Source: an uncultured bacterium (GTDB lineage Bacteria > Fidelibacterota > Marinisomatia > SCGC-AAA003-L08 > JACNLC01). Taken from it: 42,368 bases of DNA. How positions within the stretch are numbered: the stretch's first letter is position 1; each line of letters opens with the position of its first letter. Location: positions 1 to 42,368 of the forward strand of contig CAZIYQ010000001.1 of NCBI GenBank assembly GCA_964543505.1, in the 5' to 3' direction. The notes under the pieces were generated by a model. That model worked only from the letters and a program-made list of their open reading frames with translations, searched no databases and had not been told where the DNA came from. The translations under genes and the position numbers were made by a program. Shown one piece after another: positions 2,537 through 15,745 of the stretch.

Positions 2537-5383
2537 TTATTTTACGAGGAACAATTTTTGAGTGACAGACTGATTCCCTACCGTGATACGGGAGAAATAG
2601 ACTCCACTCGAGTAGTGTTCTGCGTTCCACACCACGTGGTAATTGCCTGACGGGGCAAATTCATTCACCAGAGTCTCGACCAATTGTCCCTCCATATTGT
2701 AGATTGCAACACTAACCTGACCGGGAGCGGTAAGCTCATAACCGATTGTGGTCAGCGGATTGAACGGATTGGGATAGGCTGCCACTTTCATCACATCTGG
2801 CTGGTCGTTGCTGAGTGCTGCTGCAACCTGATTCCCGGATGCATCCGCTACAAGTGCCGTTTCGATCTGTAAAGGGCCAATGTAATCAAAGAGGTTACCA
2901 TTTTTAAGAGCTGCTCCATCGAGGCTGACAATCAGGATAGTATCATCACCGGCATAGAGTTCACAGCCTTCGGGCAATGAGTCGCCTGTGATTTCGTAAT
3001 TCCCGGAAACTTTGAGCTGTAATCCGGCAGCATCACCGATGGTCGTCAATGACAGACTGTTATTGGCCATGGTCAGTTTTGCATTTTCAAGATCTGCCCG
3101 GGAAAGTCCCGAATCGAGAATATAGGAGATGATCATGACGATGTCGGTGACATCCAGAACCCCATCCCCATTAAAATCTGCCGCAGTCAGTTCATCATCA
3201 GTGGGTTCGGCATTTCCAACGATGAAACCGATGGTCGTGACCACATCCACAATGTCAACCGTACCGCTACCGTCCACATCGCCGGGAACGGAGGGTGCAC
3301 CGGTGATTGGACTGTAGCAAATATCATCGAGCCAGAGCTCCTGTCCGCCCACTTTAAACTGATGGATGACATCAAGATTCTGTGTCAGGTAGAGCACACC
3401 GTCGTCGTCGCCAAACCCGTTGGTGACGGCAACATCCACCCCGCCAACCGTTAAACCGTCCAGGGCGACAAAGTCATCGACGTTGCGGAAATCACCGTTG
3501 ATCTCGAAATTAAGGTTGCCGCCGTATTCTCCGAACAATACTTCCATGTATTGTACATCAACTCCAAAATCCAGGTCAACGGATATATTATTAACCATGA
3601 TCTCAAGACCGGAACCATTGGCCATACCGCCATTTTGGATCACGGTCTGTCCATCGTAGTTGAGGGTCCCGTCAGCGTATTCAAAAGCACCGCAAGTAAC
3701 GGCAACCGAATAGGTGTTGAAAACATCGCCGAAGATATTAGTGTCACCCAGGTATTGATCTTCCCAGTCTGTGGCCAATTCATCACATTCCATACCGGGA
3801 CAGGACATGGGTAGATCACTGCAGATATCATCGATCCAGAGTTCCTGTCCACCCAGCGTCAGGTGGTGGATGGTATCGAGGTTGGCCACGAGGGTCAGCA
3901 CACCGTAATCGTCGCCATACCCGTTTGTCACGGAGACATCCACACCACCGATCATCAATCCGTTGACAGCCACGAAGTCATCAAAATTACGGAAATCCCC
4001 GTTGATCTCAAGATTCAGATTGCCACCGTATTCACCGAACAGGATTTCCATATAGCCAACATCAGCTCCCAAGTCCAGGTTCAAGTTAATATTATTGAGC
4101 ATGATCTCGTGTCCCCAGCCATTGGCCATACCGGCGTTTCCAAAAAGGGTATTACCGGAGGCGTAGGGTGTTCCATCAGACCAGATAAAATCCAGGCAGC
4201 TTGCCGTCACCATTCCCGAAGTGAACACGTCACCCACATAATGGGAAGTACCGACAAAGGAGTCTTCCCATTCCGTTGCGATAGATTCACAGCCGCCGGG
4301 TGCTGGCAGGGTCGTCAATTCATCATAGCAAATGTCATCGATCCAGAGTTCTTGTCCGCCGATGGTGAGATGTGAAATAGAATCCGTGTTTGCGCTCAGT
4401 GCCAGGACCCCGTAATCATCGCCGTAGCCGTTTGTAACAAAAACATCCACACCACCGATTGTCAGTCCGTTGATGGCAACGAAGTCATCGAAATTATGAA
4501 AATCTCCATTGATCTCCAGATTCAAATTGCCGCCGTATTCACCGAACAATATTTCCATGTATCCCACCGTTCCGCCCAGATCGAGATTCAGGTTGATATT
4601 GTTGACCTGCATCTCCAATCCGCTGCCGCCGGCCAACCCGGAATTACCCACTTGGGTATAGCCGCCGGATGTTGGCGTACCGTCACTCCAGATGAAATCC
4701 TGTCCCGCTACCGTGACAAGTTCCGATGTGAAGACATCGCCCACATAATAGCTGTTCCCGAGGGTCATATCTTCCCAGTCAGTGGCGATGGTTTCGCAAT
4801 CACCAACGGGAGGAAGGGATCCATCTCCGGATTCGTGATAACAGATGTCATCGATACTGAATTGCTGGCCTCCAATGATAAACTGGTCAATGGTGCTAAC
4901 GGATGAATCCAGGATCAGTGTACCAAAACTGCCCGCGACTCCACCAACCAGAGTAACTGTAACCCCTCCTATTACCATTCCGTCGATAGTCGCCATGTCA
5001 TCAATATTGTGATGGTCTCCATTGATGGAAATGTTGATGTTTCCACCATAATCCCCGAAGAGCATTTCCATATGATCTGGGGCGATGCCAATTTCCAAGT
5101 CCAGATTGATGTTATTTACGATCATAAAATACCCACTGCCATTGGCCATACCGTTTTCACCCACCGTAGTAGAGCCAATATTGTAGGGACTGCCGTCAAT
5201 CAGGTAAAAAGTGTGAGTGCTTACGTTGACGCCATAAGTAGAAAAATTACTCCCGACTGAGTAAGATGCGTCCAGCGTCATGTCTTCCCAGTCTGTTGCA
5301 AATTCATCACAGGCGGGTCTGTCCACTGCAAAAACAGCAGCTACACAAATTAGTAATATGATCATTGTTTTGATTGTCTTCAT
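2537..5383 (-). CDS. Exported repeat protein: signal peptide, 4 tandem unknown-function domains, dockerin-like module, T9SS C-terminal sorting domain
   Basis: 948-aa ORF with signal peptide MKTIKTMIILLICVAAVFAV. AAGGAG is 7 nt upstream of the ATG. The domain structure is listed in the separate features below. Confidence 0.85.
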   Translation of the reverse strand: MKTIKTMIILLICVAAVFAVDRPACDEFATDWEDMTLDASYSVGSNFSTYGVNVSTHTFYLIDGSPYNIGSTTVGENGMANGSGYFMIVNNINLDLEIGIAPDHMEMLFGDYGGNINISINGDHHNIDDMATIDGMVIGGVTVTLVGGVAGSFGTLILDSSVSTIDQFIIGGQQFSIDDICYHESGDGSLPPVGDCETIATDWEDMTLGNSYYVGDVFTSELVTVAGQDFIWSDGTPTSGGYTQVGNSGLAGGSGLEMQVNNINLNLDLGGTVGYMEILFGEYGGNLNLEINGDFHNFDDFVAINGLTIGGVDVFVTNGYGDDYGVLALSANTDSISHLTIGGQELWIDDICYDELTTLPAPGGCESIATEWEDSFVGTSHYVGDVFTSGMVTASCLDFIWSDGTPYASGNTLFGNAGMANGWGHEIMLNNINLNLDLGADVGYMEILFGEYGGNLNLEINGDFRNFDDFVAVNGLMIGGVDVSVTNGYGDDYGVLTLVANLDTIHHLTLGGQELWIDDICSDLPMSCPGMECDELATDWEDQYLGDTNIFGDVFNTYSVAVTCGAFEYADGTLNYDGQTVIQNGGMANGSGLEIMVNNISVDLDFGVDVQYMEVLFGEYGGNLNFEINGDFRNVDDFVALDGLTVGGVDVAVTNGFGDDDGVLYLTQNLDVIHQFKVGGQELWLDDICYSPITGAPSVPGDVDGSGTVDIVDVVTTIGFIVGNAEPTDDELTAADFNGDGVLDVTDIVMIISYILDSGLSRADLENAKLTMANNSLSLTTIGDAAGLQLKVSGNYEITGDSLPEGCELYAGDDTILIVSLDGAALKNGNLFDYIGPLQIETALVADASGNQVAAALSNDQPDVMKVAAYPNPFNPLTTIGYELTAPGQVSVAIYNMEGQLVETLVNEFAPSGNYHVVWNAEHYSSGVYFSRITVGNQSVTQKLFLVK
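2540..2776 (-). other. T9SS (Por) C-terminal sorting domain
   Basis: YPNPFNPLTTIGYEL...VSVAIYNMEGQLVETLV...GNYHVVWNAEHYSSGVYFSRITVGNQSVTQKLFLVK matches the PNPF / IY...G / GVYF / K..L.K pattern of Por secretion tails. Confidence 0.75.
3113..3283 (-). other. Dockerin type I-like double Ca-binding module (aa 701-757 of the 948-aa protein)
   Basis: GDVDGSGTVDIVDVVTTIGFIV ... ADFNGDGVLDVTDIVMIISYIL: two EF-hand-like D.D..G...I.D loops, each followed by a helix. Confidence 0.7.
3311..5311 (-). repeat. Four tandem ~160-aa protein-domain repeats inside the 948-aa CDS
   Basis: R1 is aa 25-184 (nt 4832-5311), R2 aa 196-355 (4319-4798), R3 aa 365-523 (3815-4291) and R4 aa 533-691 (3311-3787). Each starts C[DE]x[FIL]AT[DE]WED, contains MANGSG..NNINL.LD, LFGEYGGNLNLEINGDF.N.DDF and GG.DV.VTNG.GDD.GVL, and ends GGQELW[IL]DDIC. 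The 9-11 aa linkers are Pro/Gly-rich. The DNA copies look divergent at many third-codon positions, so this is not a recent duplication. Confidence 0.9.
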
Positions 5384-5842
5384 TTTATTTCTCCTTAGTT
5401 AACTTGATTTTATTTTTTCGCATTACTTCCAGTACGGACAATACAATTGCAAAGGGAAGACCAGAAGAACTCAACTTATTCGTGTATCAATAAATAACAA
5501 CCGCTTACAGGAAAGAATTAATTTCAAGCGTTGAGATACAGAGTTGATTTTGGAGTTCGTGACCCCAATTAAGGGTAGAGTTTCACTCCAATATTTGAAA
5601 CTCAACGTTACTTGTCAAAGCCAAATGATTCGGTGTTTAAAATCATGTTGACTGAAGGGTAGATCCATGTAGAAAATGTTCTAATGGTGGATGGCAGTGA
5701 GTTGAATGATAAAGTAAACAACCTGCGGCATGCATTTTGCCATAGTCATAGCAGGGTGAGAAATCAACTTATTAAAACTCACCAGGTATTGTAAATTTGT
5801 CAATTGATAACCTTCTGTTTTTTATCGAGTGGTGATACGAAA
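5384..5842. promoter_or_regulatory. Divergent control region between the repeat-protein gene and the AAA+/beta-helix/CHAT cassette
   Basis: 459 bp with no credible ORF. The pentamer TCAAC/GTTGA occurs 7 times (5471, 5530, 5543, 5602, 5647, 5701, 5764). There is an inverted repeat TTGGAGT (5550-5556) / ACTCCAA (5585-5591). A Bacteroidota-style -7 box TAnnTTTG (TAAATTTG, 5792-5799) lies 44 nt before the ATG at 5843. The exact promoters are not established. Confidence 0.4.
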
Positions 5843-7501
5843 ATGAAAATATTTAAAGCGTTGGAATACACGGATGAGGGAAAAATCCCCAAGGTTAAAA
5901 CCCTTGAAATTCAACTTAGTAGCCAACTGGAGGGCATAAAACAGGAACTGGTCAAAGCTTCTGCGCTGGTTGTCCCCGAGTCTGTTGCCGACCAACTGTT
6001 GGAATTTCGTTCGGCGATTTTGGATCGAAAGACCAAGCATCCTGCAAAATCCTTGTCATCCCTGTTACTCGGATACGATAAAATCCCCTTCATCCGGGGA
6101 GGCTACAAAAACACCGGGCAGCTGAAACGGAGCATCAAAACGCTCCTTTCAAGGGCTGCGGAATTATCCGAAAAAAACCTCTATTTAATTGGAGTCTCGG
6201 ATGAATTGTTCGGGCAACTCTGGGAAAAAAGGAAAATTGCTCCGGCCAAACCGGACAGCGCCGGGGAGAGCCAAATACCACCGGAACTTATCCAGCGCTA
6301 TTTGGGGAAATCTAGGGAAATCACCAAAATTCGTGAGATGATCGTGCTGGCCGCCGGCAATGCGGAACCCGTATTGATTCTCGGAGAGACGGGCACCGGC
6401 AAGGAGATCATCGCACAATCTATTCACCGCTACAGCCGGCCGGGAAAACCCTTCCAGGCCATCAATTGTGGTGCTATTCCCGGGGAACTCCTTGAACTCA
6501 CCCTCTTCGGTTATATGAAAGGCTCTCACCATTTGGCTGTGATGGATACCAAAGGCCTCTGGGAGACCGCCGCTGACGGGACGCTTTTTCTCGACGAAAT
6601 CGGTGACCTGGCCCTGAATCATCAGGTTAAGATTTTGAGAGCCCTGCAGGAAGGAAAGATCCGGCGGATTGGCAGCAATACTGAGATCGAGGTTAAGGCA
6701 AGGGTCATCGCCGCAACCAACAAAAACCTCAGCCGTGAGATCCGAGAGAAAAATTTCAGGAAAGATCTGCTTTCAAGACTGGATGTCATCCGCATTGAGA
6801 GCTCCCCCCTTCGCAAGCATCCGGAGGATATCCCGCTCATCGCTCAGGTCCGCTGGCGCGAGATCACCGAAAATTCTCGGCCGCCTTTGTCTGATGAATT
6901 TCTGACAGCGCTCCGCAAATACCATTGGCCAGGAAATGTCCGTGAGCTTGAGAATGTGATTAAAAAATTGCATTATCTCAATCCTGGCTGCCGGCCGGTG
7001 AGAATTGAAAATCTGCAGGAGATTCTAAAAAACAGTGATCTCACTTACCGCCTTGAACAGCTTGCAAAAGAAGGCGCAAACGCATTCGAGATTAACCTGT
7101 GGATTGAATCCAGTACACGAGATTTTGCTCCCGACTCAAAACTGTTCAGTGTGGGAGATCCGATTCAGGTTTGTTTAAAGGCCGACAGAGACTGTCAACT
7201 ATTCCTGTTCGATCTGGGTACGACAGGAGATATTACTTTTATTCCGCCCAAACCGCAGTTGAACAACCACGTTCCTGCCAGAGAAGAGATCCGAATCCCC
7301 GGAGTTCTGAAAGGTACCGCCGGGAACGAGACTTTGTTTGCTTTTGCTTCATCAGCAGAACTTGAAATTGATCCCCGACACTGGTACTCTTCCGAAGAGG
7401 GTCTTCGAGATATCCTGGACATGATAGAGAAATATAATAAGCAGAACCAGGATAGCAGCATTGCCGTAAAATCACTTACATTCGAGATCATTGAAAAATA
7501 A
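5843..7501 (+). CDS. Atypical NtrC/sigma54-activator-type AAA+ ATPase with unknown N-domain and DUF4384-like C-domain (no GAFTGA, no HTH)
   Basis: The ORF opens at TTG 5804; the first ATG is 5843 (MKIFKALEY). Walker A is GETGTGKE (6383-6406), Walker B GTLFLDEIGDL, RVIAATNKNL follows, and sensor II is WPGNVRELENVI. At the GAFTGA position the sequence reads GSHHLA (6521-6538). The C-terminal ~135 aa (VGDPIQVCLKADRDCQLFLFDLGTTGDITFIPP...GNETLFAFAS) resemble DUF4384 rather than a Fis-type HTH. Confidence 0.8.
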   Translation: MKIFKALEYTDEGKIPKVKTLEIQLSSQLEGIKQELVKASALVVPESVADQLLEFRSAILDRKTKHPAKSLSSLLLGYDKIPFIRGGYKNTGQLKRSIKTLLSRAAELSEKNLYLIGVSDELFGQLWEKRKIAPAKPDSAGESQIPPELIQRYLGKSREITKIREMIVLAAGNAEPVLILGETGTGKEIIAQSIHRYSRPGKPFQAINCGAIPGELLELTLFGYMKGSHHLAVMDTKGLWETAADGTLFLDEIGDLALNHQVKILRALQEGKIRRIGSNTEIEVKARVIAATNKNLSREIREKNFRKDLLSRLDVIRIESSPLRKHPEDIPLIAQVRWREITENSRPPLSDEFLTALRKYHWPGNVRELENVIKKLHYLNPGCRPVRIENLQEILKNSDLTYRLEQLAKEGANAFEINLWIESSTRDFAPDSKLFSVGDPIQVCLKADRDCQLFLFDLGTTGDITFIPPKPQLNNHVPAREEIRIPGVLKGTAGNETLFAFASSAELEIDPRHWYSSEEGLRDILDMIEKYNKQNQDSSIAVKSLTFEIIEK

Positions 7502-7513
7502 CCAGGGGAGACC

Positions 7514-9334
7514 ATGAAAAACAAATTTGTCTATTTTACACTTTGCCTTTCAACGATGGTTTATGGAACCATTATCCACGTGGGGCAGGGACAGGGGCTG
7601 CCACTGATCCAGGAGGGAATCGATACCGCTCAGCCCGGCGATACGGTCCTGGTGGATGACGGAATGTATTTTGAAAATCTCAGGCTGAACAAAGAGATCA
7701 CCCTGGCCAGCAGAGCTATTTTAGACGATCCTGTGAACTGGCCCAATAATCCCCACATGATGAATACCATTATCGATGGCAGCGCAGCACCACCGGATGC
7801 CATTCATGGCAGCTGCCTCACCATTGTGACCCCTTTTGACCCGGGAGGCTTGCCCCTGCCAATTTCACCGCAAATATCAGGATTTACTCTACAGCATGGG
7901 TTTGGCACCAGAGTTACCCAAGTTTCATCCTTTGATGACAATTTCATTGAACATCTGCGCTTGGGGGGCGGCGTATTGATCGCCGGATCAACACCCTCAT
8001 TCAGCTTTAACCGATTTTTAGAAAACGGTCAGTCCAATCGAGCAGCCGGTGTAGCACGAGGTGGTGCAGCATACGCTGGAACTGATGTGGATATTGATGA
8101 GATCAGGCCGGGAATTAGACGTCATGAACAGCCAACCCGCAATGACAGCCTTCATTTTTCACACAACATCTTTCTGGCAAATTCAGCCGGGATGGGAAAA
8201 ACGATGTTTGTAGATGGCTACCAGGGGACCATAGCTGTGGACGATTGTTTTTTTGATGTATTTGACTGTGAGCATCAAACGGTTCCCACCGCCTGGATCG
8301 TCGCTGGATCCCCGGGCCTGGAATTTGATTTTTCATTAGGGGAGGGCATGGTTTGCTCCATAAATCATGATGTGTGGATCAGTCCTGCCGGGGATGATTC
8401 GAATGGCACGGGTGACCCTTGGGCACCCTTCAGAACCATAACTCATGGTTTGGAAATGATTTCAGCAAGCCTGGACAATCCCATCGGTTTACATCTGCTG
8501 CCGGGTTTGTATGCACCCTATGAGAATGGCGAGCAGTTCCCCCTGAACCTGCCGGACAACTGTCTGCTGATTGGGGACTTTGGTGACCCTGTTGTCATCG
8601 ATGCGGATTCCACTGCCAGAGCTCTGACCATCATAAACGCTACCAAAACGCGCTGTGAACGAATTGCCATTAGCGGAGGTCAGGCCGGCAGTGCAGCCGG
8701 AGGAGGGATTGGTCTTTGGAATGCTCGTCTTGAGTTACTGAACGTGACACTTTCGGGGAATACTGCTCTTAGCGGAGGGGCGATTTATGCCGAGAACAGC
8801 GAGGTGCAGATGGTCAATACGATTGTGTGGAACAACAGTCCGCCCCAACTGCATTTTAATGCACAGCGTTTCCCTGTCCGGGCTGTGTTGGCCTATTCGG
8901 ACATTCAGGGAGGACTGAACGGTGTTTATTCCAATCTTCCGGACAATCTATTCTGGCTGGCTGGCAACCTGTCCCAGTGGCCCCAGCTCTCAGGTGATTT
9001 TTGTCTGGCGAACGACTCACCGTGTGTGGATGCGGGAATTCAGGACGTGACCATTGTCTATAACATGGAACAGGACACACTCTTTATTCCCCCACTACCC
9101 TTTAGCGGGCTAAATCCGGATATGGGGGCCTGTGAAACCCCGGGCGAGCCCTTTTTGCCCGGCGATGTAGATCAAAATGGTGAGCTGAATATTGTGGATA
9201 TTGTCATTATGGTGGATTTGACGCTGAACGGCGGTGCTTCCTCCTACGAGATGCAAGCCGGTGATCTGGATAACAGTGGCGAGATCAACATTGTTGACAT
9301 TGTTCTGCTGGTTGGAATAATTCTCGACTTATAA
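7514..9334 (+). CDS. Exported right-handed beta-helix protein (two modules) with C-terminal dockerin-like domain
   Basis: Signal peptide MKNKFVYFTLCLSTMVYG, with GGGGAG upstream of the ATG. IHVGQGQGLPLIQEGIDTAQPGDTVLVDDGMYFENL is a typical beta-helix N-cap. A second cap follows (SPAGDDSNGTGDPWAPFRTITHGL), and there are GGAIY/NTALSGG turns. The dockerin GDVDQNGELNIVDIV...GDLDNSGEINIVDIV lies at 9158-9331. Confidence 0.75.
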   Translation: MKNKFVYFTLCLSTMVYGTIIHVGQGQGLPLIQEGIDTAQPGDTVLVDDGMYFENLRLNKEITLASRAILDDPVNWPNNPHMMNTIIDGSAAPPDAIHGSCLTIVTPFDPGGLPLPISPQISGFTLQHGFGTRVTQVSSFDDNFIEHLRLGGGVLIAGSTPSFSFNRFLENGQSNRAAGVARGGAAYAGTDVDIDEIRPGIRRHEQPTRNDSLHFSHNIFLANSAGMGKTMFVDGYQGTIAVDDCFFDVFDCEHQTVPTAWIVAGSPGLEFDFSLGEGMVCSINHDVWISPAGDDSNGTGDPWAPFRTITHGLEMISASLDNPIGLHLLPGLYAPYENGEQFPLNLPDNCLLIGDFGDPVVIDADSTARALTIINATKTRCERIAISGGQAGSAAGGGIGLWNARLELLNVTLSGNTALSGGAIYAENSEVQMVNTIVWNNSPPQLHFNAQRFPVRAVLAYSDIQGGLNGVYSNLPDNLFWLAGNLSQWPQLSGDFCLANDSPCVDAGIQDVTIVYNMEQDTLFIPPLPFSGLNPDMGACETPGEPFLPGDVDQNGELNIVDIVIMVDLTLNGGASSYEMQAGDLDNSGEINIVDIVLLVGIILDL

Positions 9335-9352
9335 TGATGGATTCGTAAACTT

Positions 9353-11818
9353 TTGGGTAACATGCAAAATAGGAAAGTGCTTCTCGAAAAAGCCAAACAA
9401 TTCGTCTCGGACGGTGATTTAATTCAGGCGGTCAATCCCGAAGAAGCAGTCCTGTCGTACCAATCCGCCGTAGAAACTTATCTCGAAATTGATGAACAGG
9501 CCAAAGCGGCGGATCTTCTCAATCACAAAATCGGGGTTTTATACTACAACAAAGGCTTGAACAGGGAAGCTGAAAAATGGTGGCGCAAAGCCCTTGAGGC
9601 CTATCTATCCCTGAAAGAACCTGCCGGGACCAGTGATATCTGCAACAAGCTGGGAGTGGTCCATAAGTTGATGGCCGACTATTCCACTGCGTTGCAATAT
9701 TATCAAAAGGGGCTTGAATCCACAAGCCGGTTATCAGATTCAAAAATTAAAGTCAAATTACTAAATAACCTGGGGTTGGTCTATAAACTCTTGGGACATC
9801 CACGGCGAGCCAAAGAGAAATTCAAAGAGAGCCTTGCTCTGAAAAGAGAGATGGGGGATTTGATTGGTTCCGCCAATACACTGAACAATCTGGGGAATGT
9901 GTACAAAAGCCTGGGCGATCATGCCAAGGCTATCGAAGCTCTGGAAGAATGCAGGGCCATCTTTTTGAATGAACTGAAAACTCAAGATCAGAATAACGAA
10001 GCACTTCATTTCGGACTTGTCGCAGCCACACATGATATTGGCAATTTGCATTTTCAGAATGGACATCTGGAAACCGCCATGGAGTATTACAAGGAATCTC
10101 TCAACTTCAACCGCAGACAGGGGAAGATTGTCAGCCTTTTTGCCGATTATCGGGATTTGGGAGAGATTTACATCCGGCTTAAAAAATTCGAAAGTGCCGA
10201 GCGTTTTCTGAATCAGGCCAAGGCCATTGCTGAAAAGGCCGGTATGGAAGATTGTCTTTTTAGGGCATACCAGTCATTGGGAAATCTAAAACTGGCTGAA
10301 GGAGAATTGGGTGAGGCCTTCGGACAGTACAGAAACGCTATCGAAATACTGGAAAATATTCGCGGGAATCTGCTTTACGAGAGCCATCAAACAGGTTTTA
10401 TGAAAGGCGTGCTCGAGATTTACATCTCTGCCATCTCTGTTCTGATCCGTCTGAACCGTAAAGAGGAGGCTTTTAACTACCTGGAAATGATGAAAGCCCG
10501 GGTCCTGCTGGATGTCTTGGAAGGTGGTTTTTCTGATTTCGAAGAACTGCTGACGGATGCTGAAGTCCACAAGGAGCAGGAACTACTTGAAAAATTGGAA
10601 AAACTTAACAGTGATATCGCAGGTTTGCGGTCGTTCCAACAATCCGAATTTTCTGTGTTTGCCCAAATGCGAGAGCAGGCGCGGGAAGACCTGCACACTT
10701 TTGAGGAAGAATTATATGTCACTCATCCCGATGTAAAGGAGCTGCGGGGCAGGGGAGAACCCCTACCATTTAAAAGAGCCAGAAACCTGATGAGTCGAGA
10801 TGAGATTGCCATATATTATCTCATAGAGGAACAAAAGCTGCTGATCTTCCTGCTCTCACGCCGGGAGCTGGAAATCGTTGAGACCAATATCTCCGCAGAG
10901 GAACTCAAATCGAGAGTAATCGCCCTGCAAAATCCCACCACGCTTTGGGATCATGAGGCCGGCAGAGACTTGTATCAGCTACTCATCGCACCCCTTTTAC
11001 CCTATTTGAAAAATATTGATCGTCTCTGTCTGATACCCGACGGCATCCTGAACACTTTGCCCTTCCAGGCCCTTGAGAATGCCGACACCGGCCGCTATTT
11101 GATAGAAGATTTTGCCGTGTATTATGTGCCCTCTCTCTCTGCACTGAAAAGCGTCCGGAGCCTGGGGAATTACGGCACCAGTTCATTGCTGGCGCTGGGT
11201 GATCCGCAATTTGGAGACCCGCAGCAACAAGCCGGGGGGGACAGGGATAAGATGATGACCCTGCATCCGCTTCCTGCCACGAGAGAGGAAGTTGAAGTTC
11301 TTAAAACGGTCTATGAACCCAAAGTAAAAATACTCACAGGGGCAGAGGCCACAAAGTCCAATTTAAAGAAATATGCTTCCCAATATGGAGTTCTGCATTT
11401 TGCAACCCATGCCTTTACGGATGAGACCAACCCTACTTTTTCGGCCATCGCACTTGCCCATGAAAAGGGAGAATACGGATTTCTTATTGCAAAAGAGATC
11501 ATTAAAATGGAGCTGAATGCCGATCTTGTCGTACTCAGTGCCTGCAAAACGGCCACCGGAAAAGTTGTGGAAGGAGAAGGGATGTTGGGCCTCACGCGAG
11601 CCTTTTTTACCGCCGGAATTCCAACAGTAGTGGCCTCTCTGTGGAATGTGGAGGATTGCTCAACCCGGGAACTGATGGTGCAATTTCATACCCGCTTCAG
11701 AAAGAGGGAGCGCCCTGCAACGGCATTACGCGAAGCCCAGTTGCACCTGCTTCACGAGACGCAATATGATAACCCCTTTTACTGGGCACCCTTTGTCCTG
11801 ATTGGTGATTCAGAATAA
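9353..11818 (+). CDS. TPR-repeat CHAT-domain (caspase-like, clan CD) protease, cytoplasmic
   Basis: 821-aa ORF from TTG 9353; the first ATG is 9362. The N-terminal ~390 aa are TPR_12-like repeats (NNLGLVYKLLG, NNLGNVYKSLG, DIGNLHFQNG, DLGEIYIRL, QSLGNLKLAEG), followed by a helical linker. The CHAT domain is about aa 545-818. The catalytic His lies in VLHFATHA (H686, nt 11408-11410) and the catalytic Cys in LVVLSACKTA (C731, nt 11543-11545). The domain ends with the typical YWAPFVLIGD. No signal peptide. Confidence 0.85.
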   Translation: MGNMQNRKVLLEKAKQFVSDGDLIQAVNPEEAVLSYQSAVETYLEIDEQAKAADLLNHKIGVLYYNKGLNREAEKWWRKALEAYLSLKEPAGTSDICNKLGVVHKLMADYSTALQYYQKGLESTSRLSDSKIKVKLLNNLGLVYKLLGHPRRAKEKFKESLALKREMGDLIGSANTLNNLGNVYKSLGDHAKAIEALEECRAIFLNELKTQDQNNEALHFGLVAATHDIGNLHFQNGHLETAMEYYKESLNFNRRQGKIVSLFADYRDLGEIYIRLKKFESAERFLNQAKAIAEKAGMEDCLFRAYQSLGNLKLAEGELGEAFGQYRNAIEILENIRGNLLYESHQTGFMKGVLEIYISAISVLIRLNRKEEAFNYLEMMKARVLLDVLEGGFSDFEELLTDAEVHKEQELLEKLEKLNSDIAGLRSFQQSEFSVFAQMREQAREDLHTFEEELYVTHPDVKELRGRGEPLPFKRARNLMSRDEIAIYYLIEEQKLLIFLLSRRELEIVETNISAEELKSRVIALQNPTTLWDHEAGRDLYQLLIAPLLPYLKNIDRLCLIPDGILNTLPFQALENADTGRYLIEDFAVYYVPSLSALKSVRSLGNYGTSSLLALGDPQFGDPQQQAGGDRDKMMTLHPLPATREEVEVLKTVYEPKVKILTGAEATKSNLKKYASQYGVLHFATHAFTDETNPTFSAIALAHEKGEYGFLIAKEIIKMELNADLVVLSACKTATGKVVEGEGMLGLTRAFFTAGIPTVVASLWNVEDCSTRELMVQFHTRFRKRERPATALREAQLHLLHETQYDNPFYWAPFVLIGDSE

Positions 11819-11854
11819 GAATTACAAATATTCCATCCGGTCGAAACACCAGAA

Positions 11855-12658
11855 TTATATAGAATCAAGAATACCGATGAGCAGATTTGCGAAAGACTGT
11901 TTTACGCGATCGGTCGTTTCCAGCACTTCAGTGTGAGAAAGGGGTTCGGGTGATATCCCCGCGGCATAGTTTGTGAGGCAGGATATTCCCAATATTTTCA
12001 GACCCAGTTGACTGGCTGCCTGAATCTCCGGGACGGTGGACATGCCCACGGCATCACCCCCGAGACGAGCGATCTTGTTGATCTCTGCGGGAGTTTCGTA
12101 GGTAGGACCCAGAGTCCAGCAATAGACTCCCCGGCGCAAGGGTAATTTATTTTTTTCCGCAACCATGAGCGCTATATCGGTAAGTTTAATATCATGGTAT
12201 CCGTTGCCGGCTAAGACCAAAGGGTCCTTAGACGAATTACGAAAAGTGAAATCGAGATGGGCTGTGATCACCATGAGGTCGCCCAAATTCCATTGCCGCC
12301 GGAGGCAACCCGCAGCATTTGTAATGATCACAGTTTTGCAGCCTATGGCAGAGAAGATTTTAATCGGCAGCGTCACAGTCTCAAGTGCGTGTCCTTCATA
12401 ATAATGAAAACGACCCCTGGCACAAAAAACAGACGTTCTGCCAACATAGCCAAAGACGAATTCACCCACATGTCCGGACACAGAAGGCTGGGGATAACCG
12501 GGAATGTCGGCATAAGGAATTGTAATTTCTCCTGTGAGATGAGTAGAGAAATTTGCCAGACCCGAACCAAGGATAATGGCCGCCTCTGGTGCTTCAGGCA
12601 GGATATTGAGGATGTGTTCTGTAATATCTCCGATCATAAGTTCTCTTTCATGCTTCAT
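11855..12658 (-). CDS. Purine nucleoside phosphorylase (PNP/MTAP family)
   Basis: ILGSGL, SVSGHVGEFVFG, GRFHYYEG, TNAAG and GMSTVPE motifs. I chose the ATG at 12658 (MKHEREL) because it forms an ATGA overlap with the rlmN stop. The longer ORF reaching 12721 would overlap rlmN by 67 nt. Confidence 0.85.
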   Translation of the reverse strand: MKHERELMIGDITEHILNILPEAPEAAIILGSGLANFSTHLTGEITIPYADIPGYPQPSVSGHVGEFVFGYVGRTSVFCARGRFHYYEGHALETVTLPIKIFSAIGCKTVIITNAAGCLRRQWNLGDLMVITAHLDFTFRNSSKDPLVLAGNGYHDIKLTDIALMVAEKNKLPLRRGVYCWTLGPTYETPAEINKIARLGGDAVGMSTVPEIQAASQLGLKILGISCLTNYAAGISPEPLSHTEVLETTDRVKQSFANLLIGILDSI

Positions 12659-13749: not shown

Positions 13750-13869
13750 CGGGTAAATATTACAAAAAGTTCACGGAGGTATTGTTAATTAAAAATTATC
13801 GGTGAACATTCGTGTTGGTTGATGGTTTATGTCCCGTTTAGATTCCACACCCGAAATTATAGGAGAAAT

Positions 13870-14844
13870 ATGGATAACGTAAAATTAGTACAGAAATTAC
13901 ATCAACAAAAATCAGCATTATACGATGAAATTGGTAAAGTGATCATTGGGCAGAAGGATATTGTTGAACGCTTATTTATTTCATTATTATGCAAAGGCCA
14001 TATCCTGTTGGAGGGAGTGCCCGGATTGGCAAAAACCTTGTTGATCAAAACCCTTTCCGATGTTTTGGACCTTTCCTTTAACCGTATTCAATTTACACCG
14101 GATTTAATGCCGTCCGATATTACCGGTACAGATATCATTGAAGATAATGCCGAAACCGGAAAACGGGAATTCAAATTTTTTCAGGGTCCGGTGTTTGCAA
14201 ATATCATTCTCGCTGACGAAATCAACCGGACACCGCCCAAAACTCAGGCCGCTCTGCTGGAAGCGATGCAGGAACACAAAGTCACTACCGGCGGAAAAAC
14301 CTATACTCTTGAAGAACCCTTTTTCGTTTTGGCAACGCAAAATCCCATCGAACAGGAAGGCACCTATCCACTGCCCGAAGCCCAGCTCGACCGTTTCATG
14401 TTTAATGTCTTCATTCGCTATCCTTCCGCTGCGGAAGAGGTGGATATTGTCAAATCCACTACCGGCTCATCAGACGTATCGCTGAACAAGATCATCTCGC
14501 GAAAGGAATTGCTGGAGTTCCAGGAACTAGTCCGCAATGTGCCCGTGGCTGATAATGTGATTGAATACGCCGTTGATATTGTGGGCAAAACGCGTCCACT
14601 GTCAGAGACGGCCCCACAATTCACCAAAGACTGGCTGGATTGGGGTGCGGGACCCCGGGCCAGCATGTTTTTAGTCCTTGGCGCCAAAGCCAGGGCAGTC
14701 CTCGACGGACGCACAACCCCAGACATCAATGATGTTATTTCGCTGGTCAAGCCGGTCTTGCGCCACAGGATCATCACCAATTTTAATGCAGAGGCCGATG
14801 GCATCAAAACGGACGATGTTTTGGATAAATTGATCAAGGGTTAG
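13870..14844 (+). CDS. MoxR-family AAA+ ATPase
   Basis: AGGAG is 5 nt before the ATG at 13870. Motifs: LLEGVPGLAKT (Walker A), RIQFTPDLMPSDITG, ILADEINRTPPKTQAALLEAMQE, ATQNPIEQEGTYPLPEAQLDRF. Confidence 0.9.
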   Translation: MDNVKLVQKLHQQKSALYDEIGKVIIGQKDIVERLFISLLCKGHILLEGVPGLAKTLLIKTLSDVLDLSFNRIQFTPDLMPSDITGTDIIEDNAETGKREFKFFQGPVFANIILADEINRTPPKTQAALLEAMQEHKVTTGGKTYTLEEPFFVLATQNPIEQEGTYPLPEAQLDRFMFNVFIRYPSAAEEVDIVKSTTGSSDVSLNKIISRKELLEFQELVRNVPVADNVIEYAVDIVGKTRPLSETAPQFTKDWLDWGAGPRASMFLVLGAKARAVLDGRTTPDINDVISLVKPVLRHRIITNFNAEADGIKTDDVLDKLIKG

Positions 14845-14854
14845 ACGCAGTCGA

Positions 14855-15745
14855 ATGGCAAAAACCCGGTACCTGACTCCAGATATTATCTCGCGTCTCG
14901 ACAATCTGTCGCTGAAGGCGCGCATGGTGGTTGAGGGTTTCATTGTGGGTCTTCACAAAAGTCCCTACCACGGTTTTTCTGTGGAATTTTCAGAACATCG
15001 GTCATATGGTCCCGGAGATGAAATCCGGCATATTGACTGGAAACTCTGGGGGAAAACCGAACGCTATTATGTGAAGCAGTTTGAAGAAGAGACCAATTTG
15101 CGCTCACATCTGTTAGTGGATCAGAGTCGTTCGATGGCGTTTAAATCCGGAGCAGTGAGCAAACTGAATTACGCCCAGGTCCTGGCCGCTTCCCTGGCAT
15201 ATCTGATGATCAAACAGCAGGACGCCGCCGGCCTCACGCTTTTCGATTCGGAGATCCGTTCTTACGTACCGTCACGTTCCAAAACCAGCCATTTGAATGT
15301 GCTTCTGGGGCAGATGGACCACATCAATCCCGGACCCGAAACCCGCATTAGTCCCATCCTGCACAAAACAGCCGAAGCCATCCGCAAAAGGGGATTGATC
15401 GTCCTCATTTCAGATCTCTTCGATGATCCCGACGAAATGATCTCCGGTCTGAAGCATTTTCGCCACAAAGGTCACGAGGTTATCGTTTTTCATATTTTAG
15501 ACCCCCAGGAATTAACACTCGATTTTACAAATCGAACTCTGTTCAAAGATATGGAAACAAAAGAGGAAATCATCACTGAGCCCTGGCACATTCAGAAAGA
15601 TTATCAGAAGAGCCTGCGAGATTTCTGCGATCACATCCAAAACCGCTGTCGAAGGAATCATATTGATTATGTGCGCCTCACCACGGACCAACCCCTAGAT
15701 CTGGCCCTGGTAGAGTATCTCATCAAACGCAAACGGATGGGATAA
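14855..15745 (+). CDS. DUF58 (vWA-like) protein, MoxR partner
   Basis: HKSPYHGFSVEFSEHRSYGPGDEIRHIDWKLWGKTERYYVKQFEEE is the DUF58 signature. The gene starts 10 bp after moxR. Confidence 0.85.
   Translation: MAKTRYLTPDIISRLDNLSLKARMVVEGFIVGLHKSPYHGFSVEFSEHRSYGPGDEIRHIDWKLWGKTERYYVKQFEEETNLRSHLLVDQSRSMAFKSGAVSKLNYAQVLAASLAYLMIKQQDAAGLTLFDSEIRSYVPSRSKTSHLNVLLGQMDHINPGPETRISPILHKTAEAIRKRGLIVLISDLFDDPDEMISGLKHFRHKGHEVIVFHILDPQELTLDFTNRTLFKDMETKEEIITEPWHIQKDYQKSLRDFCDHIQNRCRRNHIDYVRLTTDQPLDLALVEYLIKRKRMG

Follow-up and report, generated by a model that had tools for sequence, protein, structure and literature searches.

The window analysed here is the whole 42,368-nucleotide stretch (42 kb) of contig CAZIYQ010000001.1, from an uncultured bacterium of the phylum Fidelibacterota, and derives from a microbial-mat metagenome. 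Its forward strand carries a gene for a 552-residue protein in which the AAA+ motor of the sigma-54 activators, or enhancer-binding proteins (EBPs), is joined to a C-terminal DUF4384 domain, and this gene is followed in the same operon by genes for an exported beta-helix protein and for a tetratricopeptide repeat (TPR)-CHAT protease. The likely start of the AAA+/DUF4384 gene is the ATG at 5843 (MKIFKALEY...), which has a Shine-Dalgarno-like GGTGA 7 nt upstream and with which the N-termini of the orthologues align; a TTG at 5804 is an alternative start of the same open reading frame (5804/5843-7501, + strand). Residue numbers follow the protein record P0001, which starts one codon earlier (5840). 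The gene and its parts are as follows.

5843..7501, + strand: AAA+/DUF4384 gene, 552 aa (open reading frame, translation, Pfam and orthologue alignment)
5843..6241, + strand: N-terminal alpha/beta domain (aa 2-134), predicted as a beta-hairpin and four beta-alpha units (AlphaFold2 model)
6302..6799, + strand: Sigma54_activat AAA+ core (aa 155-320; PF00158, 186.7 bits against a cut-off of 20.2)
6383..6406, + strand: Walker A, GETGTGKE (read from the sequence; invariant in the clade)
6521..6538, + strand: tip of the L1 loop, GSHHLA in place of GAFTGA (ungapped FleQ alignment)
6578..6610, + strand: Walker B, GTLFLDEIGDL (read from the sequence, with FleQ and orthologue alignments)
6812..7036, + strand: AAA_lid_14 lid (aa 325-399; PF25601, 53.6 bits)
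6926..6955, + strand: sensor II, WPGNVRELEN, inside the AAA+ lid
7004..7090, + strand: predicted two-helix linker from the lid to the beta-sandwich (aa 389-411; model, pLDDT down to ~70)
7145..7354, + strand: DUF4384 beta-sandwich (aa 436-505; PF14326), with invariant Cys445 and Cys452
7355..7498, + strand: C-terminal helix and strand extending the DUF4384 module (aa 506-553; model)

The central part of the protein is closely related to the motors of well-characterised EBPs. In a phmmer search of the PDB, residues 147-382 match FleQ, NtrC1, NtrC4, ZraR, LuxO, FlrC and PspF with E values from 1e-57 to 1e-40, the best match being FleQ (E 5.5e-57; structures 5exp, 6jdi and 8pb9), to the core of which the protein is 45% identical. 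In addition to the Walker motifs and sensor II, the core contains sensor I (RVIAATN) and both arginines of FRKDLLSRL, and it has in common with NtrC, PspF, FleQ and NtrC1 the AAA+ clade, the motifs, the L1 and L2 insertions and the AAA_lid_14 lid. NCBIfam returns only sub-threshold matches for the core, to many EBP equivalogs. The full protein was modelled with AlphaFold2 from a 73-sequence family alignment, giving a mean predicted local distance difference test score (pLDDT) of 88.2, and Foldseek places the modelled core on those of FleQ, NtrC1 and FlrC with root-mean-square deviations (rmsd) of 1.6-2.0 Å and target-normalised TM-scores of 0.87-0.92. An earlier note on this DNA, made from the letters alone, had proposed an EBP-type core from its Walker, sensor I and sensor II blocks, and this assignment is borne out by the Pfam score and the FleQ alignment.

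EBPs are the classic example of AAA+ motors devoted to one substrate, sigma-54, and mutagenesis of PspF, NtrC and NifA has established the Phe and Thr of their GAFTGA loop as the residues that contact it. In the alignment with FleQ, which is free of gaps from Walker A through past Walker B, LFGHEKGAFTGA faces LFGYMKGSHHLA, so that the Phe and the Thr are both replaced by His and the Gly that follows by Leu (nt 6521-6538); the tip GSHHLA falls outside the pattern G[AS][FY][TS]xA by which GAFTGA-type loops were recognised. The His-His substitution had been pointed out in the earlier note, and it stands with the register unshifted. Furthermore, G[SA]HHLA and every ATPase motif are invariant across four orthologues of about 52-77% identity, and this invariance indicates that the variant loop is a selected alternative rather than the product of decay or chance. 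The same genome, in which rpoN is present, contains nine further Sigma54_activat (PF00158) loci in addition to two weak Clp-type matches. The eight of these nine loci that were read out encode canonical REC-AAA-HTH proteins (receiver, motor and helix-turn-helix) with GAFTGA-type loops, and because these eight are canonical the change of loop is not a matter of lineage-wide drift.

The helix-turn-helix (HTH) by which EBPs are anchored to DNA is also missing. A Pfam scan of the protein at E up to 1 finds neither HTH_8 nor any other DNA-binding family, and the confident AlphaFold2 model contains no helix-turn-helix; a hidden HTH was rejected on these two grounds, in keeping with the earlier note, which had seen none of the Fis type. 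What follows the lid in the model is a pair of helices (389-411), a beta-sandwich (418-504), a helix (519-535) and a strand (541-551). Because GAFTGA and the HTH are both missing, the protein fails two defining features of a sigma-54 activator. TyrR, VpsR, HupR and the NtrC proteins of Rhodobacter and Caulobacter share with the protein described here an EBP-type core from which the sigma-54 contact motif is missing, but they keep a C-terminal HTH and mostly a known input domain, neither of which is present in the window's protein; the earlier note had contrasted it with TyrR, HupR and Rhodobacter NtrC on the first of these points, and the architecture does differ. FlgR of Helicobacter pylori and CtcC of Chlamydia are also without a DNA-binding domain, and so act from solution; unlike the window's protein, both have retained GAFTGA together with a receiver domain, and their activation of sigma-54 is proven.

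In place of an HTH_8, the protein has a C-terminal DUF4384. On the protein, the Pfam model reaches 26.5 bits (E 6.7e-6), which is 0.5 bit short of the gathering score of 27, and in a six-frame search of the genome the segment 7145-7354 scores 30.8 bits, above the cut-off. The Pfam match is unmarked (E at most 1e-5) in the orthologues at loci L014 and L108 and is marked 'weak' in that at L013. A profile of the C-domain, run against 1.8 billion representatives, retrieved 366 proteins at E up to 1e-3; the best 148 by E value, less the proteins longer than 900 aa, left 135 that were scanned, and all but one of these (134) have Pfam DUF4384 (PF14326). As judged from these searches, the C-terminus is a genuine DUF4384 domain, as the earlier note had recognised from its residue pattern. 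About half of the DUF4384 relatives are exported proteins with tandem DUF4384 domains, and the domains that co-occur in the scanned set are Lon_C (in five), Guanylate_cyc (four), Pkinase (two), TIR, caspase and DUF4145. The C-terminal helix and strand recur, conserved, in P0122 and P0124, the closest cytoplasmic relatives. The former, a DUF4145-DUF4384 protein, is the closest relative of the C-domain outside the EBPs (E 6e-29), and its stop codon overlaps the start of a gene for a 1235-aa HSP70-DUF7363-CHAT protein. P0124, a Ser/Thr kinase-DUF4384 protein encoded on a 2.4-kb contig (L111), overlaps an upstream gene for an extracytoplasmic function (ECF) sigma factor, an arrangement that recalls the connection between Csx30 and RpoE. 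A metagenome contig scan with the C-domain alignment gave no confirmed locus. No description of a Sigma54_activat+DUF4384 architecture was found in the literature searched, and none of the papers there that mention DUF4384 ties it to sigma-54-type ATPases.

The genomic company of DUF4384 was surveyed in the window's phylum, in which 53 of 301 genomes contain 60 DUF4384 domains in all; CHAT and Peptidase_C14 domains were searched in these same 53 genomes. Of the 60, 34 have a CHAT or Peptidase_C14 domain no more than 5 kb away on the same contig, where about 0.6% would be expected from the density of CHAT/caspase domains, and the proportion outside the EBP clade is 31 of 57. DUF4384 modules are non-randomly encoded beside caspase/CHAT proteases. 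The three examples verified with Pfam are a DUF4384 gene followed by a TPR-CHAT gene (L118), DUF4384, WD40 and TPR-CHAT genes in succession (L120) and a caspase gene followed by a DUF4384 gene (L119). Typically, a DUF4384 protein of ~300 aa, either exported or a lipoprotein, is encoded directly after a large exported caspase protein (L116-L124), and the pairing of caspase and DUF4384 looks like a general two-gene module. Orthocaspases, too, carry DUF4384 (PMC7475262). In these fusions and gene pairs DUF4384 goes with a clan-CD protease, being either part of the protease or carried by a small partner that is mostly exported, whereas here it is placed on a cytoplasmic EBP-type ATPase. A second DUF4384 case was read as cytoplasmic at L112; the cytoplasmic DUF4384 proteins at L111, L113 and L114 lie on short contigs, and the neighbour at L114 shows only a weak CHAT-like Cys motif.

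A protease of this kind is encoded two genes downstream of the ATPase. The surroundings of the gene in the window, which form a cassette with it, are as follows.

2537..5383, - strand: divergent gene for a type IX secretion system (T9SS) cargo protein of 948 aa, with dockerin and Por_Secre_tail (Pfam)
5384..5842, no strand assigned: divergent intergenic region, with the AACTCAAC/GTTGAGTT array and a sigma-54-like element
5727-5740, + strand: sigma-54-like -24/-12 element GGCATGCATTTTGC (GGCAT-N5-TTGC), 115 bp upstream of the AAA+ start
7514..9334, + strand: exported beta-helix (DUF1565) protein with a C-terminal dockerin (Pfam, signal-peptide-like N-terminus)
9353..11818, + strand: TPR-CHAT protease, 821 aa (CHAT at 271 bits and TPR repeats, Pfam)
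11408-11410, + strand: CHAT catalytic His686 (LHFATHA; motif read from the sequence)
11543-11545, + strand: CHAT catalytic Cys731 (VLSACK; motif read from the sequence)

The AAA+ gene and the beta-helix gene are separated by 12 bp, and the latter is separated from the TPR-CHAT gene by 18 bp; the CHAT domain lies 3.6 kb downstream of DUF4384 in the same operon. There is no terminator-like site between the cassette genes, and a scan of 5300-12100 for sigma-70 promoters and terminators is at the shuffled expectation. The order of the cassette, with the T9SS cargo gene divergent and the genes for the AAA+-DUF4384 protein, the exported beta-helix protein and the TPR-CHAT protein (~820 aa) in succession, is identical in four lineages (77%, 75%, 60% and 53% identity), while the genes downstream of it vary between lineages (PNP_UDP_1, PALP, acetyltransferase). 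Wherever a lineage has the AAA+-DUF4384 protein, its gene and a TPR-CHAT gene occur as a fixed pair. A survey of 61 related genomes places the protein in each of the three species of the window's genus and, beyond it, in a single further genus of the family, the rest of the order being without it; a contig scan with the clade alignment keyed on Walker A was dominated by canonical EBPs and added no orthologues. The TPR-CHAT protein is without a signal peptide. At L013, L014 and L108 a dockerin/Por-tail cargo protein is encoded in the same divergent position, its length differing between lineages (947, 974 and 1475 aa), and the beta-helix protein measures ~606 aa, its dockerin being detected by Pfam in the window and faintly in L014.

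A parallel to such a gene pair is Craspase, the type III-E pair Csx29/Csx30, in which a TPR-CHAT protease is encoded together with its partner and in which proteolysis of that partner, Csx30, alters sigma-factor-dependent transcription. Some Csx30 proteins, the substrates of this CRISPR TPR-CHAT protease, have a C-terminal DUF4384, which is found in some Csx30 groups. The partner here is an AAA+ ATPase and not Csx30, and no cas or Csx families (Cas7-11, Csx30/Csx31/RpoE context) were found among the called neighbours in the window, L013, L014 and L108.

At the other end of the protein, the N-terminal domain resembles no input domain of the EBPs. Modelled alone, its 135 residues reach a pLDDT of 95.4 and a predicted TM-score (pTM) of 0.89; neither Pfam nor NCBIfam matches it even at E up to 10, and Foldseek of the domain alone against the PDB gives a best E of only 0.12. 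A receiver (REC) identity, prompted by a Foldseek overlay of the full model on REC-AAA structures (375 columns), was ruled out, since the rmsd of the overlay is 12-18 Å, the domain alone has no PDB match and its hhalign probability against the REC domains of the genome's own EBPs is 0.2%. Hence the domain is not REC, GAF, PAS or FHA, as the earlier note had stated, nor is it V4R or CARF. The best PADLOC match of the protein, at 255 bits, is RtcR (CARF-AAA+-HTH; PADLOC RtcR_PspF2), which likewise has an EBP core behind a non-receiver alpha/beta sensor domain. Kinship with CARF/RtcR was nevertheless rejected, because the match spans the AAA+ part only (profile positions 167-438); unlike RtcR, the protein gives no CARF match with its N-domain and has no HTH.

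The N-domain is shared with a wider set of proteins. A whole-protein search and BLAST of the separated domains identified about 90 proteins of 530-590 aa (P0007-P0099) that have the N-domain and an EBP core, none of which contains HTH_8. Their C-termini are of three unrelated types, namely a helical type of ~155 aa (61 proteins), a beta-rich type (11) and DUF4384 (6, the window's clade), the helical and beta-rich types being without a Pfam match. A loop of the form G[AS][FY][TS]xA is kept in only 38 of the 73 aligned members. In a maximum-likelihood tree the family stands apart from the canonical EBPs (support 100/99), the HHLA sequences form a single, monophyletic group (100/98), and non-canonical tips have arisen in at least four separate clades: HHLA; GSHDRA/GSHNMA; DVxGPG/NVIHMG; and GVATGV, the last type being carried by all 11 proteins with a beta-rich C-terminus. 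The GSHDRA and GSHNMA proteins (P0081, P0085; L115) form a second Phe-to-His clade, nested among GAFTGA sequences, and on this tree His in the position of the GAFTGA Phe is convergent, having arisen twice independently. No Pfam or NCBIfam model and no description in the literature searched was found for the family, which is not described in the 2020 eLife survey of NTP-dependent conflict systems either. The N-domain marks out an undescribed family of EBP-type ATPases that have no HTH and a hypervariable L1 loop, the GAFTGA form of which has been lost recurrently.

Outside the window's clade, the neighbourhoods of family members (loci L017, L018, L020, L021 and L115) are heterogeneous and often conflict-like. 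The neighbours seen include Pup ligases and AAA ATPases, TIR- and DUF4062-STAND-WD40 proteins, a ClpB-like operon and a MORC-type HATPase_c_3 gene. Members with the beta-type C-terminus and GVATGV adjoin the Pup-ligase/AAA clusters. The N-domain family, the recurrent loss of the loop and the TPR-CHAT gene two genes downstream of the ATPase go beyond what the earlier note had described.

Taken together, these observations lead us to favour, with a probability of about one half, an EBP-derived ATPase that has been uncoupled from sigma-54 and is tied through DUF4384 to the TPR-CHAT protease of its operon. We still infer, now on stronger grounds, that the protein is a repurposed EBP ATPase, as the earlier note had suggested: selection on the loop, the eight canonical EBPs of the genome, the tie of DUF4384 to caspase/CHAT proteases and the fixed TPR-CHAT gene of the operon all strengthen that suggestion, and none of the three outcomes that the note had named as contrary to it, a register shift recovering a GAFTGA-like loop, an HTH or a C-domain that does not score as DUF4384, was found. 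Mechanistically, the protein would be an ATP-driven ring ATPase of sigma-54 activator descent that has been released from the enhancer/sigma-54 mechanism. Its N-terminal alpha/beta domain may act as the input that gates assembly of the ring, as N-domains do in EBPs, and DUF4384 may dock the ATPase onto the CHAT protease. Most likely, the protease would then cut the poorly ordered linker (aa ~385-415) and so switch the ATPase, in parallel to the action of Csx29 on Csx30; in the model, the linker at aa 389-411 is a candidate protease-accessible segment. Alternatively, the ring could remodel substrates, or use its His-lined pore to feed them to the protease. The output would probably be control of the flanking exported dockerin proteins.

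A more specific form of this proposal can be offered tentatively. The L1 loop may have been re-specified, by the change from Phe/Thr to His/His, for another substrate, and the DUF4384-docked ATPase and the TPR-CHAT protease might together form a cytoplasmic signalling switch that is independent of CRISPR and driven by ATP and proteolysis, a 'Craspase without Cas'. Equally tentative is the extension that the N-domain family represents an unrecognised radiation of EBP-type motors, the L1 tips of which diversified at least four times for targets other than sigma-54; many members of the family adjoin conflict-type genes (Pup ligases, TIR-STAND, MORC-like ATPases). If a conserved branch has retained the motor while losing its contact with sigma-54 and its anchorage to DNA, it would illustrate how such motors are re-targeted, and the gain of a protease-associated module points to the new partner of the motor. 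For DUF4384 itself, its co-location with caspase/CHAT proteases, its presence in some Csx30 substrates and its attachment to an ATPase here offer a first contextual handle, and the three-protein system could show whether stand-alone TPR-CHAT proteases cut a DUF4384-tagged regulator.

Several points weigh against an ATPase that is uncoupled from sigma-54 and tied to the protease. The gene between the ATPase and the protease encodes an exported beta-helix protein, an ill fit for a purely cytoplasmic pair, and most DUF4384-caspase pairs of the phylum carry signal-peptide or lipoprotein signals, which the window's pair does not, so that the cytoplasmic case of DUF4384 and protease is an extrapolation from pairs that are mostly exported. 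The TPR-CHAT protein, when compared with Csx29 in the PDB, shows no similarity beyond generic TPR repeats. Contact between the AAA+ and CHAT proteins and the cleavage, like the function, are matters that we infer from context. In addition, the sigma-54-like promoter upstream of the gene keeps a transcriptional role in consideration, and this brings in the alternatives that concern the divergent intergenic region.

That region contains five to seven copies of AACTCAAC/GTTGAGTT (5384-5842), and both exact matches to the array motif in the 42-kb window fall within it. The order and spacing of the copies are kept in four lineages, and the array is probably the operator or upstream activating sequence of a DNA-binding regulator, as its conserved layout suggests. 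The GGCAT-N5-TTGC element is the sole match to that pattern in the 42 kb, and each of the three species of the genus has kept it. It could be taken to favour the main alternative, in which the protein is still a sigma-54 activator, working from solution without a DNA-binding domain and with a non-canonical L1 tip, autoregulating its operon, and having DUF4384/TPR-CHAT as no more than regulatory input. FlgR of Helicobacter and CtcC of Chlamydia provide precedents for action from solution, rpoN is present, the EBP-specific fold is fully kept, about half of the HTH-less parent family retains GAFTGA, and a natural loop variant of D. vulgaris, GVATGV, was considered able to support activation through sigma-54 (PMC4641369), a judgement that also tells against uncoupling. 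We nevertheless consider a surviving sigma-54 activator unlikely. Not one but three residues of GAFTGA, the Phe, the Thr and the following Gly, are replaced here; the -24/-12 element was not detected in the two lineages that share the cassette but are more distant; about one match to its pattern is expected per window by chance (62 of 100 shuffles gave one somewhere in the window); and the promoter could instead be served by the genome's HTH-bearing EBPs.

The conserved array raises the further alternative of a regulator of sigma-70-type or other promoters, of the kind of TyrR, VpsR, HupR and alphaproteobacterial NtrC, that binds the AACTCAAC array via an unrecognised surface. Homologues that are without GAFTGA and regulate sigma-70 promoters are well known, among them VpsR (PMC6158489) and Caulobacter NtrC (10.1101/2023.06.06.543975), and an array with conserved positions adjoins the gene in four lineages. 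However, all the known regulators of this kind keep a C-terminal HTH, which neither Pfam nor the model reveals here, the N-domain being an alpha/beta fold and the C-domain a beta-sandwich, and the distance of the array is constant with respect to the T9SS gene (78-89 bp from the start of that gene to the first copy) and not to the AAA+ gene. Because it is to the T9SS gene that the distance is constant, the array may belong to the T9SS promoter and another factor. A regulator of the TyrR/VpsR kind appears improbable. Still less probable, in our estimate, is an incidental linkage to the TPR-CHAT gene, the protein then being either a chaperone-like ATPase that works by itself or an EBP paralogue in decay, without any specific role. 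The narrowness of the clade, which is confined to one genus and one other genus of the family, and the unrelated exported protein encoded between ATPase and protease would be compatible with it, but at 52% identity all the catalytic motifs, and the variant loop with them, are still unchanged, the cassette is kept while its flanks change, and the association of DUF4384 with proteases is far above chance.

Some further observations concern the genes around the ATPase. The 948-aa T9SS cargo protein contains four tandem repeats of ~160 aa, and no cohesin was seen. A pair of genes for MoxR (AAA_3) and DUF58 proteins (13819-15745, + strand) is located 2 kb past the cassette in the window's genus (L013 synteny) and lies outside the conserved block. 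Elsewhere in the genome there is a second, weak CHAT open reading frame of ~550 aa (G000:C28:13635-14312; 63.6 bits), which is unrelated to the cassette and has counterparts of similar size in related genera (G001, G003, G005, G007 and G014).

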